Shown here: positions 280-8,046 of the stretch, piece after piece
How positions within the stretch are numbered: position 1 is the stretch's first letter
Layout: each line of letters opens with the position of its first letter
Assembly: GCA_951406725.2 (NCBI GenBank)
Contig: CATOCA020000075.1
Coordinates: 1-8,371 of the forward strand
DNA from: Octopus vulgaris
Taxonomy: Eukaryota
Direction of reading: 5' to 3'
DNA length: 8,371 nt
The notes under the pieces: generated by a model
Databases searched by the model: none
The model's input: only the letters and a program-made list of their open reading frames with translations
Told to the model about the DNA's origin: nothing
Translations under genes and position numbers: made by a program

Positions 280-350
280 ATATGTGTAAGTATACATATA
301 TATGTATATTTATATACGTATATATATATACATATATATGTATATATATA

Positions 351-557
351 CATACATGTATATATACATACATGTATATATACATACATGTATATATACA
401 TACATGTATATATACATACATGTATATATACATACATGTATATATACATACATGTATATATACATACATGTATATATACATACATGTATATATACATACA
501 TGTATATATTCATACATGTATATATACATACATGTATATATACATACATGTATATAT
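351..557. repeat. 16-bp tandem repeat (CATACATGTATATATA), ~13 copies
   Basis: Units start every 16 bp from 351 to 543, with a single A>T variant at 510. Confidence 0.92.
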
Positions 558-574
558 GCATATGTATATATACA

Positions 575-612
<38 letters not shown>

Positions 613-678
613 TATATATACATATATGTATATATACATATATGTATATATATATATATGTATATATAGATATATATA

Positions 679-1446
679 CATATATGTATATATACATATA
701 TGTATATATACATATATGTATATATACATATATGTATATATACATATATGTATATATACATATATGTATATATACATATATCTATATATACATATATGTA
801 TATATACATATATGTATATATACATATATGTATATATACATATATGTATATATACATATATGTATATATACATATATGTATATATACATATATGTATATA
901 TACATATATGTATATATACATATATGTATATATACATATATGTATATATACATATATGTATATATACATATATGTATATATACATATATGTATATATACA
1001 TATATGTATATATACATATATGTATATATACATATATGTATATATACATATATGTATATATACATATATGTATATATACATATATGTATATATACATATA
1101 TGTATATATACATATATGTATATATATACATATATGTATATATATACATATATGTATATATACATATATGTATATATACATATATGTATATATACATATA
1201 TGTATATATACATATATGTATATATACATATATGTATATATACATATATGTATATATACATATATGTATATATACATATATGTATATATACATATATGTA
1301 TATATACATATATGTATATATACATATATGTATATATATACATATATGTATATATATACATATATGTATATATACATATATGTATATATACATATATGTA
1401 TATATACATATATGTATATATACATATATGTATATATACATATATG
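679..1446. repeat. 16-bp self-complementary tandem repeat (CATATATGTATATATA), ~47 copies
   Basis: 27 units of 16 bp (679-1110, G>C variant at 782), 2 of 18 bp, 11 of 16 bp, 2 of 18 bp, then 5 of 16 bp. Less regular copies continue to ~1855. Confidence 0.92.
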
Positions 1447-1447
1447 T

Positions 1448-1482
<35 letters not shown>

Positions 1483-1628
1483 TGTATATATACATATATG
1501 TATATATACATATATGTATATATACATATATGTATATATATATATATGTATATATACATATATACATATATGTATATATACATATATGTATATATACATA
1601 TATGTATATATATATATGTATATATACA

Positions 1629-1676
<48 letters not shown>

Positions 1677-1846
1677 TGTATATATATATATGTATATATA
1701 CATATATGTATATATATATATATATATATATACATATATGTATATATACATATATGTATATATACATATATGTATATATACATATATGTATATATACATA
1801 TATGTATATATACATATATGTATATATATATATATGTATATATACA

Positions 1847-1927
<81 letters not shown>

Positions 1928-1985
1928 TATACATATATGTATATATATATATGTATATATATATATGTATATATATGTATATATG

Positions 1986-2154
<169 letters not shown>

Positions 2155-2167
2155 ATATGTATATATA

Positions 2168-2199
<32 letters not shown>

Positions 2200-2237
2200 C
2201 ATATATATACATATATATATATACATATATGTATATA

Positions 2238-2574
<337 letters not shown>

Positions 2575-2611
2575 CATATATATAAATATATATATATACA
2601 TATATATATAA

Positions 2612-2644
<33 letters not shown>

Positions 2645-2841
2645 TATATATATATATATATATATACATATATAATATATATATATATGTATATATACTA
2701 TATATATATATATACATATATATGTACATATATGTATATATATATATGTATATATAATATATATATATATATACATCAATGATGATATATATATACATAT
2801 ATATACATATATATATATACATATATGTATATATATATATG

Positions 2842-2900
<59 letters not shown>

Positions 2901-2945
2901 TGTATATATATATATGTATATATACATATATATACATATATATAC

Positions 2946-3036
<91 letters not shown>

Positions 3037-3079
3037 CATATATATGTACATATATGTATATATATATATGTATATATAA

Positions 3080-3116
<37 letters not shown>

Positions 3117-3184
3117 GTATATATATATGTATATATACATATATATATATATGTATATATACATATATATATATGTATATATAC

Positions 3185-3211
3185 ATACTTTGATACTTTG
3201 ATACTTTGATA
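3185..3211 (-). repeat. LINE 3' tail, (TATCAAAG) x3.4
   Basis: Plus strand has ATACTTTG at 3185, 3193 and 3201, followed by ATA. An 8-bp tandem tail instead of poly(A) is typical of CR1-clade elements. Confidence 0.9.
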
Positions 3212-3277: not shown

Positions 3278-3736
3278 TCAGAATTTGGGCACTATGGCCC
3301 ACTCAAGTAGAGAGTTATTGTTTACAGAGACATATCCGGGTGTAGGGGGTTTATCTGGGATTTCTTGAAGGAATCTGTCCAAAGACTTCTTGAACCCTAT
3401 AGGGTCAGTTTCTGTTTTAATGTGTTTTGGTGTAATGTTAAAGAGAGCGGGGCCAATTGAGGTGAAATAATTGTGCCGTATTGTTGTTATGAGATGAGAG
3501 TGCGATTTTTGTTTTGGGCGGATGGCACGGGGCCCAAGCCTTGGATGTACCTTAAAGGTGATGCCAACATCATTTGGGCAATGCTGATGGAATATTTTCC
3601 ACATCATGCAGATGATGTAGCACTCACGACGACGTTGGAGAGAATAGAGTTTTAGCTTTTCTAGTCGACCCCAATAGTCGAGGCCTGTCATGCCATCTAT
3701 CTTTTTTGTGATTGCCCTTTGAGGTGCTTCGACTTT
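3278..3736 (-). CDS. C-terminal part of LINE ORF2, separated by a 1-nt frameshift
   Basis: KVEAPQRAITKKIDGMTGLDYWGRLEKLKLYSLQRRRECYIICMMWKI...FKKSLDRFLQEIPDKP is the expected continuation after LWSPHTIQGIK. Stop TGA at 3280-3278. It lies within track ORF 3278..3775. Confidence 0.85.
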   Translation of the reverse strand, partial: KVEAPQRAITKKIDGMTGLDYWGRLEKLKLYSLQRRRECYIICMMWKIFHQHCPNDVGITFKVHPRLGPRAIRPKQKSHSHLITTIRHNYFTSIGPALFNITPKHIKTETDPIGFKKSLDRFLQEIPDKPPTPGYVSVNNNSLLEWAIVPKF

Positions 3737-6312
3737 TTGATACCTTGTATTGTGTGGGGAGACCACAGTGGACAACAGTATTCAAGGTGGGGTCGGGCAA
3801 AAGTGGAGAAGAGAAGGATAATGGTGTGGATATCTCTCGACTGGAAAGTTCTGAGAATCCAGGAACACATTCTGCGGGCCATGTCAACTTTGGTGTTTAT
3901 ATGAGTGGCCCAGCTTACGTTGTTGTCCACAATTACTCCCAAGTCTCTGATGTTGTTGGACGCCGCGAGAGTTTCACCTGAAGGAAGGGAGTATGGGAGT
4001 TTCAGGGCATCCTCTTTTCCAAAGTGGATTAGCTCAAATTTATCCTCGTTCAGCAGCATATTGTTTTTTTCTGCCCATTGGATAACAGCCAGTAGATCTG
4101 ACTGAAGGCATGTCCGGTCACTCGCCTCATTTATGACCTTCTGTAGCTTGGAGTCATCTGCAAAGATTTTTATGTTGCTGTGCTTGATGATGTCATTAAT
4201 GTCATTAATGTAAATGATGAAAAGAAGTGGGCCCAGCACAGTGCCTTGCGGAACGCCACTACTGACTTTGGCTGGGCTTGATTTTACCCCTTCAACTACA
4301 ACATGTTGAGATCTGTCTGTCAGGAAACACTTAATCCATTTCAGTAACTTTCCAGAGACACCAATGTTGGATAGTTTTTTCAATAGGATCTTGTGATCGA
4401 CCCTGTCGAAGGCCTTACTGAAATCAAGGTAGATGACATCGGTGTTGGAGCCCTCTCCCAAAGCTCTCAAAATGTCCTCAAAGTGATGCAGGAGCTGCGT
4501 TAGGCAGTCCCTTCCATTACGGAACCCATGTTGGTTGGAGATCAGCCGTCTGTTGCTTTCCAGAAATTGGGTTATTTGAGATCTCACCACCCTCTCAAAT
4601 ACCTTGATGATATGAGAGGTGAGTGAGATCGGACGGTAATTCACTGCAAGGGACTTGTTTCCCTTTTTGAAAACTGGGACAACAGACTGGGACAGAAGGT
4701 TTTTTGGAATATAGCCAGCATCCAGTGAGTTTCTCCACAGATTAGCAAGGGGAGATGCAAGTTGGTGTCGACACACCTTCAGGACACAAGCAGGGAACCT
4801 ATCGGGGCCTACTGCTGAATTGTGTTTTATTTCGTTTATCGCCGCTAAGACATCAGGGGCACTAAACGTTATGTCCGATATAGTGTGTTGGGGGTTGACA
4901 TCACTGATACAGCCCAGATCGGCCATATCAGGATTGCTGAAAACAGAGCAGTATTGTTTCTGCAGTATCTCGGCCATGGATTTGGCATTATCTTGGAGAG
5001 TGCCAGTTTCGTCAATTAGAGGGCCTACAGTGGAGACAGTGACCCTGCGTTTCCTCGCAAATGAAAAGAACACTTTGGGGTTGAGTTTGATTTTTTCAAT
5101 GGCCCACTTCTCCTCAGCTGATCTTTGGTTATTGATGAGGGACTTCATGCATTGTTGGAGGTTATATTTTTTGGATTCAAGCAGTGCGATAGCCGTCGAA
5201 TGTGTGTGTTGCTGTTGGCAGTACTTTAGTTTGTTAATTTTTTTGTTTGTTCTTTTTATTTTTCTGATAATGGTTTTTCTGTTTTGGGGGATTCTGCACT
5301 TTTTGTTCACAGGTCTTGGTGGGGAGTGTTTTGCACATATGTCTGTGACGGTGTCTACAAAGATCTGCCAAGATGTTTTATGGTTGGTGGAGATGTGTGT
5401 ATGTGTAAAGGACCAGTCAACATTTGATAGCTCGTTCCTGATTGCATCCCAGTTGGCTTTATGGAGATCCATGTTGTCAAATGGGTGGGCTGGAGGAAGG
5501 TCACTAGGATTAGCTTTCGGCTGGTGGAATTTCATGTTACAGAGAACCATGTCATGGTCTGAAAGAAGGGTTTTTTCCACTGTAACGTTATGTATAGTGT
5601 TAGTGTGGTTACTAAACACTAGGTCCAAAATGTTCTGATGTCTTGTTGGTGCAAGGACAAGTTGGGACAAGAAAAACTCATTCGTAAAGTCGAAAAGTGA
5701 CTCTGCTGCTTCTTTGTCAGCGGTTGAGGCGGGAGTGCTTGGTTTCAAACAGTTTGTAGTCCAGTCAACACAGGGTAGATTGAAGTCTCCCATCATGAGT
5801 ATGTTGCTAGAATGGCACTGTTGAATAAAGCACTTAATGCTGTTGAGGCATTCTTTAAAGCACAGTATGGGTGTTTGGGGCGGCCTATAGAGCCCAATTA
5901 CTGTCAGATCATTGGCTTTGTTGTGCACGGTGACTGATTCACAGTAGCCGTTGGAGAATATACTATTTCCATCTGCCGTAAATGAATCATGCAGGAAAAT
6001 GGCAGTTCCACCCTTCCTCCTGCCGATACGATCCGCGCGGATGGTTGTGAAATTCTTCACTCTCACTTCGGCTTCCAAGTGGGAGTTGTCAAGGTGGGTC
6101 TCAGTGAGAATGAAGAAAGGGATGTGGTGTGAATGGTTACCAACCCAGTCTTCAATGAATTGGACCTTCCATTTTTGTGCATTGATGGAAGGGCTGACAC
6201 CTTGTGCATTGAGTAGGAATGTGGAGGTTAGTGTAGTGGCTGGTTTTGACTGTTGCAGGGGGCTTGGATTTTTTGTGTGTGTTAGTGGCAGCAATGTGGG
6301 GAATTGGTGCAC
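3697..6312 (-). CDS. LINE ORF2: APE-type endonuclease plus reverse transcriptase (frame open from 6408; true end 3278 once the indel is repaired)
   Basis: Endonuclease motifs LLNAQG, LTETHL, RADR..RKGG, GLYRPP, GDFNLP, PTR..NILDLVF and SDH (~6220-5550). RT motifs NYRPISLTS, QHGFR, YLDFSKAFD, SGVPQGTVLGPLLF, FADD (4164-4153) and RDLGV. The track start at 6312 is GTG, not ATG. Confidence 0.95.
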   Translation of the reverse strand: MHQFPTLLPLTHTKNPSPLQQSKPATTLTSTFLLNAQGVSPSINAQKWKVQFIEDWVGNHSHHIPFFILTETHLDNSHLEAEVRVKNFTTIRADRIGRRKGGTAIFLHDSFTADGNSIFSNGYCESVTVHNKANDLTVIGLYRPPQTPILCFKECLNSIKCFIQQCHSSNILMMGDFNLPCVDWTTNCLKPSTPASTADKEAAESLFDFTNEFFLSQLVLAPTRHQNILDLVFSNHTNTIHNVTVEKTLLSDHDMVLCNMKFHQPKANPSDLPPAHPFDNMDLHKANWDAIRNELSNVDWSFTHTHISTNHKTSWQIFVDTVTDICAKHSPPRPVNKKCRIPQNRKTIIRKIKRTNKKINKLKYCQQQHTHSTAIALLESKKYNLQQCMKSLINNQRSAEEKWAIEKIKLNPKVFFSFARKRRVTVSTVGPLIDETGTLQDNAKSMAEILQKQYCSVFSNPDMADLGCISDVNPQHTISDITFSAPDVLAAINEIKHNSAVGPDRFPACVLKVCRHQLASPLANLWRNSLDAGYIPKNLLSQSVVPVFKKGNKSLAVNYRPISLTSHIIKVFERVVRSQITQFLESNRRLISNQHGFRNGRDCLTQLLHHFEDILRALGEGSNTDVIYLDFSKAFDRVDHKILLKKLSNIGVSGKLLKWIKCFLTDRSQHVVVEGVKSSPAKVSSGVPQGTVLGPLLFIIYINDINDIIKHSNIKIFADDSKLQKVINEASDRTCLQSDLLAVIQWAEKNNMLLNEDKFELIHFGKEDALKLPYSLPSGETLAASNNIRDLGVIVDNNVSWATHINTKVDMARRMCSWILRTFQSRDIHTIILLFSTFARPHLEYCCPLWSPHTIQGIKKSKHLKGQSQKR

Positions 6313-7511
6313 TGGGGTAATAGCATAGGATGGTGTTGAGTGATGGCAAGAATGTTTTTGTGTATCTCTTTTGCCATGTTCAACATGGCTAAAAAAGAAT
6401 TTTCCTGCTTAGGGAGCAGTTTTTGGCTGGAGGTGTGGTTGCACTGTTGGATAGGGTTGTAGTTTCCACTTTTATTGTTGTTGTTTTTGTGTCTTCCTGA
6501 AAAGACTGGACCAGCATTACTGCAGCATGGTGTGTTTCTATTTTTATTGTTATTCAGGTTTGTGTGTTGGCTTGAGGCCCCGTTTCTGTTTGTGCGTCGG
6601 GTCCCTGGAAGATGAGTGAAGGGACAGTCACTCAGTAGACATGTTCTCTCACGTTGGGAATACCGGCAGATTTTGGGACTCCGAGTTGTGTGTGTTTTGA
6701 ATTTCGATTTACTATTTGGTGGTGTTGATGTTATTGTGGGATGCGTGCTTTGGCCTTGGCCAGTAGTGCGTCTAGTGCCGGGTAGATGCGTGAAGATGCA
6801 GTCACTATTTGTGCAGAGTCTCTGGCGCAGTGAATAGCGGCATATTTGGGGATTTCTTGTTTGTGCCGTGGGGGGCGCATTCTGCTTCCTATGTTTCTTT
6901 AAGTTTTTGTTACTGCAGTAGTATTGAGGTGGTGATGTGGGGGAAGAGGGCAGTGGTTTCTTATTTGGTTTTCTGTTGGTATTTTTGGTGATAGAAGACG
7001 ATGGTGGCAGCGGTGGTGATGATGATGATGATAATTGTGGTGGTTGCTGTGAGAGCGGTGAAAAGATACTGGCATTTAGTGAATCGTCTAGTAAGCTAGA
7101 GTTGAGGAGTGGCTGTTGTTGTTCTTGTTGCTGTGGCTGTTGTTGTTGTTGTTGTGCCTGACCGATGTCAGGGTCAGCCATTGTGTTGGGAACCAGGAGT
7201 GGCTCATTCTGTTGTTGTTGTTGTTGTGGCTGCTGATTTTCTAGCTGTTGTTGTTCTTGAACTGTGAAAATATGTAGAAGCTTTTCATAATGGCCTCTTA
7301 TCAGTTTGAAAGATACTTCGATATGTTTCAACTTGCTACGAATCTGTTTGACGGATCGTGTGTTGACCACTTGTGATGTTTTTTCGGCAATCTCATTCAA
7401 ACACAAGACATTTAGATTTTCTGTTTGGGAAAGAGAGAGCCATGTGTTTATTAAAACATCAATTTCGTTATCAGACCAATTTCGTCTGTTGCAGGCCTGC
7501 AAGTTAGTCAT
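6282..7511 (-). CDS. LINE ORF1 nucleic-acid-binding protein (Myb/SANT-like domain, polyQ, two CCCH zinc fingers)
   Basis: 409-aa uninterrupted ORF. ATG sits in an ACAAACATGA context with no upstream ATG in the 5'UTR. N-terminal NWSDNEIDVLINTW...EIAEK...RSVKQIRSKLK, and two C-x8-C-x4-C-x3-H motifs (6842-6786 and 6668-6612). Stop TAA at 6284-6282. Confidence 0.88.
   Translation of the reverse strand: MTNLQACNRRNWSDNEIDVLINTWLSLSQTENLNVLCLNEIAEKTSQVVNTRSVKQIRSKLKHIEVSFKLIRGHYEKLLHIFTVQEQQQLENQQPQQQQQQNEPLLVPNTMADPDIGQAQQQQQQPQQQEQQQPLLNSSLLDDSLNASIFSPLSQQPPQLSSSSSPPLPPSSSITKNTNRKPNKKPLPSSPTSPPQYYCSNKNLKKHRKQNAPPTAQTRNPQICRYSLRQRLCTNSDCIFTHLPGTRRTTGQGQSTHPTITSTPPNSKSKFKTHTTRSPKICRYSQRERTCLLSDCPFTHLPGTRRTNRNGASSQHTNLNNNKNRNTPCCSNAGPVFSGRHKNNNNKSGNYNPIQQCNHTSSQKLLPKQENSFLAMLNMAKEIHKNILAITQHHPMLLPQCTNSPHCCH
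6334..6396 (-). promoter_or_regulatory. Candidate programmed -1 ribosomal frameshift signal (U_UUU_UUA plus stem-loop)
   Basis: ORF1 codons TCT TTT TTA give the heptamer at 6396-6390, and a -1 slip enters the ORF2 frame. Downstream pairings are UGUUGA (6385-6380) with UCAACA (6339-6334) and AUGGCAA (6377-6371) with UUGCCAU (6349-6343). Confidence 0.7.
7113..7259 (-). repeat. CAA/CAG triplet repeats encoding the ORF1 polyQ tracts
   Basis: Plus-strand TTG/CTG runs at 7113-7154 and 7209-7259 translate as QEQQQLENQQPQQQQQQ and QQQQQQPQQQEQQQ. Confidence 0.85.
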
Positions 7512-7793
7512 GTTTGTTTTTCTTTTGTTTGTTTTCCTTTTGATTTTTGAAAATATATATATTCTTTCTTGGGAGTTAAAGAAGTGTATATATATATAAA
7601 TGTTCTCTCTTAAGGGTGTGAGTTTTTGATTATTTGGTTGTTTGAGGATATTAAAAGAAAAACAGGTGTATATAACAATTTGTAGTTAAATGAAAACGTA
7701 CTTACGGGTTTGTAGGCAAACACGTGGTTACAAATATATATATATTTAAGGTCAGTTAGTTTTGAAGCTGTGTAGCTTGCTACTGACTCAGTA
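7512..7793 (-). promoter_or_regulatory. LINE 5'UTR with putative internal promoter
   Basis: ~280 nt A-rich leader with no ATG. It begins with the palindrome TACTGAGTCAGTA (7793-7781), which contains an Inr-like TCAGT and an AP-1-type TGAGTCA. An E-box CACGTG is at 7721-7726. Promoter function is inferred. Confidence 0.5.
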
Positions 7794-8046
7794 TATATAT
7801 ATACATAATATATATATATCCAGTATAATAGTATAATATTATATATATATATATATATATATGATAATATTTATATATATATAAGTATATATATATGTAT
7901 ATATATATATATATATATGATAATATTTACATATATAAGTATATATATATATGTATATATATATATGATAATATTTATATATATAAGTATATATATATAT
8001 TATATATATATATATATATATAGATAGATAGATATATGATAATATT

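Follow-up and report, generated by a model that had tools for sequence, protein, structure and literature searches.

The window analysed here, a stretch of 8,371 nucleotides from Octopus vulgaris, contains a single copy of a LINE that lies on the minus strand, spans ~4.5 kb and is flanked by TA-rich arrays on both sides. Read 5’ to 3’ (all features of the element are on the minus strand), it comprises a 154-nt 5’ UTR without ATG (7512..7665), with the main transcription start probably at 7665; a 409-aa ORF1 (6282..7511; ATG at 7511 preceded by an A at -3, stop at 6284-6282); an ORF2 frame of 899 codons, counted from a slippery heptamer described below (3697..6396), whose first Met is codon 200, within the endonuclease; and a 3’ tail of 3.4 copies of an 8-bp tandem repeat (3185..3211), which adjoins a TA-rich array. 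ORF1 encodes, in order, a Myb/SANT-like domain, a linker of poly-Q (CAA/CAG triplet repeats, 7110..7259) and Pro/Ser, two CCCH fingers and a C-terminal helix. Upstream of the mapped 5’ end is a unique segment (7666..7795), either element or host flank, across which contigs of three sequencing runs extend with no listed differences (X1 to 7789, X19 to 7788, X16 to 7735). A low-complexity 12-mer at 7807-7796 is identical to the LINE’s 3’ flank and possibly represents a target-site duplication, which in TA repeats is inseparable from chance.

Within ORF2, Pfam identified an APE domain (about 6159-5554; Exo_endo_phos_2, E 3e-14) followed by the RT (about 4662-3934; RVT_1, E 5e-30), an order that is a trait of the CR1 group, and the best sequence match in the PDB was human L1 ORF2p (E 1e-22). 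The C-terminal part of ORF2 lies in another frame (3278..3781), beyond a frame break near 3728-3737. Since contigs of runs X1 and X19 differ there by a one-base indel, the break is either specific to this copy or an assembly error; ORF2 and the 3’ tail are nearly intact. A tail of short repeats rather than poly(A) is likewise a CR1-group trait, and three relatives introduced below (L006, L007 and L009) have 3’ ends with similar AAGTA-type repeats. The APE-RT, the 8-bp tail and the absence of other domains suggest that the LINE belongs to the CR1 group; our ORF2 tree, which is unrooted and is built from eight rows (the window and seven unclassified elements, three short ORF2s being left out), puts the window row on a long branch.

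The initial annotation had read ORF1 residues 11-70 (7481-7302) as a Myb/SANT-like domain, and this assignment was borne out. Pfam matched PF13837 (Myb_DNA-bind_4, trihelix-type) to aa 9-73 (7293..7487, enclosing 7302-7481) over profile positions 1-71 of 89, with 25.1 bits (E 2.4e-5) in the context of the whole ORF1, below the curated cut-off of 27 bits for this family, and with scores above it for the isolated pieces aa 1-90 (29.0 bits, E 1.4e-6) and aa 7-82 (29.3 bits); it was the only Pfam family listed for the isolated N-terminal piece. Scanning 1.84 billion representatives with ORF1 returned 10 matches, seven to the CCCH/C-terminal part and three to the Myb part (P0005, P0006 and P0009; pieces of 77-157 aa). 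P0005, 41% identical to the ORF1 Myb region, itself reached 31.7 bits against Myb_DNA-bind_4 over the same 71 profile positions, P0006 matched the family weakly (E 0.024) and P0009 had no Pfam Myb match. The three are 29-36% identical in our alignment A2, in all four rows of which R52, Q56, I57, K60 and K62 are invariant; two of them likewise continue into poly-Q, and one sits on a contig of 4569 nt, suggestively near the LINE’s 4.5 kb length.

In the ESM Atlas, the best scores of the Myb piece were 0.81-0.87, all below 0.9, and the Myb/SANT clan accounted for all ten best matches having a family, which we treat as a lead only; the Myb alignment, searched against PDB sequences, gave 11 matches at E<=10, none of them to a Myb protein. 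The middle Trp had been reported as replaced, and it is, although not alone: Trp12 is retained, while Leu38 and Leu61 (in K60-L61) occupy what we take, from the Myb pattern, to be the second and third Trp positions. Such a pattern would rule out canonical c-Myb repeats and would still be compatible with a divergent trihelix/MSANTD type. The family assignment, which draws on sequence profiles, appears good and near the cut-off, with a predicted fold that is compatible rather than decisive.

Modelled by AlphaFold2 from a four-row alignment (ORF1, P0005, P0006 and P0009; pLDDT 73, pTM 0.48), the region forms helices at 14-27, 35-48, 54-73 and 75-92. Three helices plus a long extension are thus predicted. 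Foldseek gave no significant counterpart; 0/17 PDB matches reached E<=0.001 and the SANT domain of DNAJC2 ranked fourth at E 6. A wide structure search gave best Z scores of 5.7-5.8, all below 6 and in a range that may reflect a common arrangement. Among its best rows were homeodomains (Z 5.6-5.7; 51-55 residues at rmsd 1.7-2.5); the GT-1 trihelix domain (75 aligned, Z 4.8 and rmsd 5.9) and SANT (Z 3.0) scored lower, and no row rose above background. A Myb-like fold of aa 9-73 is very probable in our view, the model resembling a homeodomain-like three-helix bundle at middling fold scores.

Finger 1 of the CCCH pair (C-x8-C-x4-C-x3-H; aa 224-242, 6786..6842) was detected by Pfam below threshold (zf-CCCH_2, E 0.089) and by hhalign to a PHD-CCCH ORF1 family (probability 96%, E 3e-9), and finger 2 (aa 282-300, 6612..6668) is its internal duplicate, the two units being 62% identical at the nucleotide level over 108 nt. 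At aa ~196-207 (6920-6860), the stretch YYCSNKNLKKH aligns with the relatives’ third finger and appears to be what is left of a decayed finger ahead of the duplicated last one. The window’s fingers share homology with the last finger in a ~400-440-aa protein family (10 matches among 6002 candidates), and a metagenome scan with that last finger matched 38 stretches, 10 of which were confirmed (L001-L010). Because all ten of these finger-found loci carry an APE(-RT) ORF2 downstream (29-41% identical to that of the window), the fingers place our ORF1 in a LINE lineage, and its 409 aa fall within the 393-485 aa of the relatives. ORF1s with tandem CCCH fingers, often behind a SAP/HEH-like domain and a PHD-like finger, were seen in L001-L010 and also in P0007, P0008, P0010-P0012 and P0026-P0034; this type has no entry in the accessible text of two ORF1 catalogues (PMC4120745, PMC13343379) and is of interest apart from Myb. 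The L004 contig opens (1-1250) with tandemly repeated units of ~30 nt, which lie far upstream of ORF1 and could be 5’ UTR monomers.

Half of the ten loci (L001, L004, L006, L007 and L010) keep the whole ORF1 N-terminus. The first four share a 90-aa helical domain (pLDDT 93) whose fold neighbours, at middling Z scores of 3.5-5.8, include Rho-N, DEK, Endo VII, the SAP domains of Ku70/PIAS/Hcc-1 and the LEM domain of emerin, and which is followed by a C4-H-C3 finger with Trp; the ESM Atlas returned no usable match for this domain. A PHD-like finger stands first in L010 (Pfam E 0.1), and one is also present in P0008 (Pfam E 0.07). The N-terminal slot of all five whole relatives is therefore filled by SAP-like plus PHD-like modules or by PHD alone, never by Myb, and the Myb region showed no homology to the relatives’ N-termini (E 0.84 and 0.86, with 0/90 other targets under E 0.35). 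We rejected the idea that the relatives’ helical domain is a diverged Myb, given this lack of homology and its SAP-like fold neighbours. Since the relatives’ slot never holds Myb, the Myb domain looks like a swapped-in module, and the simplest reading is a single ORF1 of CCCH type, the N-terminal slot of which is exchangeable and receives fillings of DNA- or chromatin-binding type.

The proposal that the module was captured agrees with the unrelated SAP-like/PHD-like modules in the relatives’ slot, but the donor side of it found no counterpart: no Harbinger or host donor of Myb appeared in the protein searches (0/14 and 0/7226 candidates). A second full-length Myb-plus-CCCH ORF1 was likewise not retrieved in protein or prokaryote searches. 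Comparing the Myb region with proteins of 224-716 aa gave 0/14 candidates; the Myb alignment against proteins of 276-2000 aa gave 0/7226, which is weak evidence; pattern matches in viral contigs were confirmed in 0/109, 0/7 and 0/15 cases; and prokaryote genomes yielded 0/137 and 0/20.

ORF1 contains the slippery heptamer U_UUU_UUA (X_XXY_YYZ type) in its own phase (6390..6396; codons S372/F373/L374), the same as the heptamer of HIV-1 gag-pol, and the -1 frame at this site opens ORF2. The same arrangement, with the heptamer in ORF1 phase, the same F-L dipeptide and a -1 frame leading into an AUG-less ORF2, was found in 11/11 elements, namely the window and the 10 loci, which represent seven families and four deep lineages at 29-42% ORF2 identity; the 10 loci had been chosen by the CCCH finger, ~70 codons upstream of the heptamer (heptamer positions in relatives: L001 1162, L003 666, L005 509, L006 1604, L008 420 and L009 264). 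As a control, only one of 20 other F-L dipeptides has the heptamer. From each element’s codon use, the chance of the heptamer is 0.003-0.05 per family, or about 2e-7 as a product with one family per deep lineage. The -1 frame is open merely 0-21 codons upstream of the heptamer, and the first Met of ORF2 falls at or inside the endonuclease; the open -1 frame across the overlap adds weak support (chance 0.05-0.29 per family).

Two other routes to ORF2 were weighed. The ORF1 stop coincides exactly with the endonuclease’s first motif (first L-N codons) in 5/7 families, so that a restart after it would clip the endonuclease, and no near-cognate start precedes that motif in the same five families, for which termination-reinitiation was accordingly rejected; the window copy has one in-frame CUG between the ORF1 stop and the endonuclease, which leaves reinitiation conceivable there. 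Transcriptional slippage is unlikely, with T-runs of 6-7 and no indel listed in the contigs. A predicted stem-loop that starts ~5 nt past the heptamer (6334..6385; -11.6 to -12.1 kcal/mol; z -2.15 over 75 nt and -1.39 over 80 nt) is a candidate stimulator, though the stem of this copy is weak. The stem starts 5-10 nt downstream in most families, with z at about -2 or lower in 5/7 of them, the others being L007 (-1.59) and L010 (+0.11, no stem). It is highly probable, from these sequence comparisons, that ORF2 is expressed by -1 ribosomal frameshifting at U_UUU_UUA, and the earlier suggestion that frameshifting tethers Myb to the endonuclease and RT gains support from the conservation of the heptamer in all 11 elements.

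To relate the window to sequencing runs, we drew on 24 listed runs, 20 of which, carrying three organism labels between them, contain 87-94% of the words found in 6250-7750, and compared the contigs of four (X1, X15, X16 and X19) with the window. Single contigs of X1 (4588-7789) and X15 (5571-7665) join Myb to ORF2. Those of X16 and X19 are interrupted within the poly-Q repeats, with Myb on a separate contig. The X15 contig (depth 120.7) has a loose end at 7665 whose reverse complement matches the Smart-seq2 start label (as given in the accessible text of bioRxiv 10.1101/2022.01.12.476004), and 7665 therefore represents the 5’ end of an RNA on the ORF1 strand. The adaptor and poly(T) ends of X15, whose run label is ‘DNA?’, led us to read it as cDNA. 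Inside ORF2 lies an internal polyadenylation signal with a poly(A) end (5230..5260; AAUAAA at 5260-5255, loose T10 end at 5230), at which the X15 depth steps from 120-440 above the site to 0-7 over the RT. Abundant RNA in X15 thus appears to stop 25 nt past AAUAAA, within ORF2 and before the RT, and premature polyadenylation at 5230 would favour ORF1p over full-length RNA. A Myb N-terminus is likely a trait of the LINE family; what the contigs document is linkage and transcription rather than numbers of loci, and they therefore leave room for the one-locus chimera weighed below.

Combined, these results favour, with a probability of about 0.56, a model in which a Myb helix-turn-helix at the N-terminus of ORF1p occupies an exchangeable slot, is fused by frameshifting to the ORF2 enzymes and acts as a DNA/chromatin tether. 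Capped sense RNA starting at 7665, a start shown in one run (X15), would be translated by most ribosomes into the 409-aa ORF1p, whose CCCH fingers may bind element RNA, a function established for CCCH families. A minority of ribosomes would, with strong support from the heptamer, slip -1 at U_UUU_UUA and produce a gag-pol-like Myb-CCCH2-APE-RT fusion, this slip being the sole evident route to ORF2. The basic helix 3 would then bind DNA and keep the RNP, along with the endonuclease in the case of the fusion, on chromatin, so that Myb would fill the role of the relatives’ SAP/PHD, with a sequence preference that is probably loose rather than strict. Taken by itself, the role of Myb as a DNA/chromatin tether seems to us on balance probable.

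A bolder version, which we regard as doubtful, holds that an APE-type LINE independently rebuilt the R2 design from a captured Myb and an HIV-type frameshift, that Myb reads a DNA sequence and thereby steers insertion, for instance to TA-rich microsatellites such as those on either side of this copy, and that SAP+PHD, PHD and Myb are interchangeable targeting cassettes of the slot. In R2 and R4/Dong, according to the accessible text of two sources, a Myb-type domain N-terminal to the RT is tied to target recognition, the Dong target being (TAA)n repeats (PMC7998251, PMC13708176). The window LINE resembles these elements, so far as those sources describe them, in having a Myb-type domain N-terminal to the RT, here via the predicted fusion. 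R2/R4, however, have a restriction-like endonuclease at the C-terminus and a single ORF, whereas the window LINE has an N-terminal APE and two frames, and Pfam matched no restriction-like endonuclease family in the C-terminal piece of ORF2. A Myb-like region also occurs within TRAS ORF2. The single insertion into TA-rich flanks says little about targeting, because over one third of the window consists of such repeats.

It is unlikely, in our view, that the Myb/SANT fold is a family trait that binds proteins or histone tails, oligomerises or binds the element’s own promoter, with no role in bringing the endonuclease to DNA. Helix 1 is indeed acidic (aa 10-34: 1 K/R vs 4 D/E), whereas the helix 3 region is strongly basic (aa 51-80: 8 K/R vs 2 D/E) and carries the invariant residues; in the model, helix 3 runs on into the long helix 75-92, which may be able to dimerise. 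Leu stands at two of the three Trp positions, yet the best Pfam family is of the DNA-binding trihelix type. The relatives’ slot bears on both sides, PHD fingers being histone readers and SAP-like domains being DNA-binding folds. A precedent for protein-mediated targeting is TRE5-A, whose ORF1p targets via host TFIIIB proteins according to the accessible text of PMC5911963.

Improbable, too, is a one-locus chimera in which a 5’-truncated CCCH LINE came to lie in frame behind the Myb exon of a host gene or a Harbinger relic, possibly heading to domestication. In X16 and X19 the depth of the Myb side is 2.3-2.9-fold below that of the part 3’ of poly-Q, and the join lies within the poly-Q repeats, but depth declines steadily from 3’ to 5’, as for any LINE. 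Similarly, the 5’ part has no listed differences among the three organism labels, the three of three ORF1 differences among those listed are synonymous, and the main X15 RNA stops at 5230, ahead of the RT; this same 5’ part nevertheless is a single open frame, has an AUG-free UTR of its own and shows no listed joint, the ORF1 length of 409 aa fits the relatives’ 393-485 aa, and ORF2 and the tail are nearly intact. The failure to retrieve a Myb-CCCH homologue (0/14 and 0/7226 candidates) would also fit a chimera, against which stand the three diverged Myb homologues, two running into poly-Q and one on the 4569-nt contig, as suggestive evidence only. Finally, a small helical bundle merely resembling Myb, which the whole-ORF1 score of 25.1 against 27, the P0009 sequence with no Myb match, the Atlas scores below 0.9, the fold Z below 6 and the four-row model (pTM 0.48) might allow, is very improbable, since two sequences 41% identical both exceed the curated cut-off across an identical set of 71 profile positions and Pfam, Atlas and fold search agree on the HTH clan.

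We compared the favoured architecture, Myb in an exchangeable slot of a CCCH-type ORF1, with published ones. Metcalfe and Casane (2014) sorted the ORF1s of 448 CR1/L2 elements into types I-V, with PHD, RRM, CCHC, Tnp22, esterase and zf/lz, and proposed general genome targeting for the N-terminal PHD; neither Myb nor CCCH occurs in the accessible text or three supplement files (PMC4120745). Compared with these types, as far as that source describes them, the window LINE is alike in its APE-RT ORF2, its modular, shuffled ORF1 and its N-terminal chromatin-type module, and differs in having Myb and CCCH, both outside those types; conversely, RRM-CCHC, Tnp22, PHD and esterase are absent from the five Pfam families listed for the window ORF1 at E<=10. 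In the accessible text of Stuart et al. (2026), vertebrate ORF1s are esterase and transposase-22-like only, with 0 matches to Myb, SANT or CCCH (PMC13343379). The initial annotation’s impression that Myb is missing from CR1-group ORF1 catalogues is thus supported for the accessible parts of these two sources. Ivancevic et al. describe an algal L1 with an HTH_1 ORF1, and a helix-turn-helix ORF1 therefore has one precedent, although the accessible text contains no Myb, SANT or CCCH (PMC5203782). Accessible text of three mollusc papers (PMC9115989, PMC10294476, PMC11203168) gave 0 matches to Myb. Our literature search, whose scope ended short of Repbase, Dfam, subscription journals and some supplements, found no description of a Myb- or CCCH-type LINE ORF1 or, within the same limits, of U_UUU_UUA or a slippery site in CR1-group LINEs.

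For the frameshift, the closest parallel is offered by the Dictyostelium TRE5-A/TRE3-A elements, APE-type LINEs whose ORF2 requires a -1 frameshift according to the accessible text of PMC5911963, and which differ from the window LINE in being L1-clade amoebal elements. Reviews describe LINE ORF2 initiation as open or as occurring by stop-start coupling, and their accessible text gives no such heptamer for CR1-group elements (PMC3894237, PMC5009743). With PIF/Harbinger Myb/SANT accessory proteins and host trihelix/MSANTD proteins, the window ORF1 shares an N-terminal PF13837 domain followed by a low-complexity linker, the difference being that it is here joined to CCCH fingers in a LINE ORF1.

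What appears to be new is thus a Myb-type N-terminus on a CR1-group LINE ORF1, a variant of a known LINE group in which the putative swap and frameshift are well supported by relatives. Because the N-terminal module is all that distinguishes relatives sharing the CCCH core and ORF2, the function of the slot is testable by swaps, and with it the role of ORF1 accessory domains, namely whether the N-terminal slot sets where a LINE lands. With regard to LINE ORF2 translation, the conserved heptamer and the ORF1 stop on the endonuclease motif point to a gag-pol-like fusion and to a seven-base site. If Myb does steer insertion, the element would offer a natural precedent for retargeting APE-type retrotransposons.

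Several features lie outside the LINE. A TA-rich array of ~2.9 kb occupies 280-3185, with a 16-bp higher-order unit across much of 340-1850, and gives rise to many spurious sub-threshold miRNA matches; in an Rfam search of the window, only sub-threshold miRNA matches on TA repeats were present among the matches listed (150 of 239). At 1-68, on the minus strand, A-box- and B-box-like motifs resemble, by eye, the head of a tRNA-derived SINE; ARAGORN found 0 tRNA genes in the window. Positions 102-280 form a GC-richer island with (GAT)n at its end, probably where another interspersed repeat has its 3’ end.
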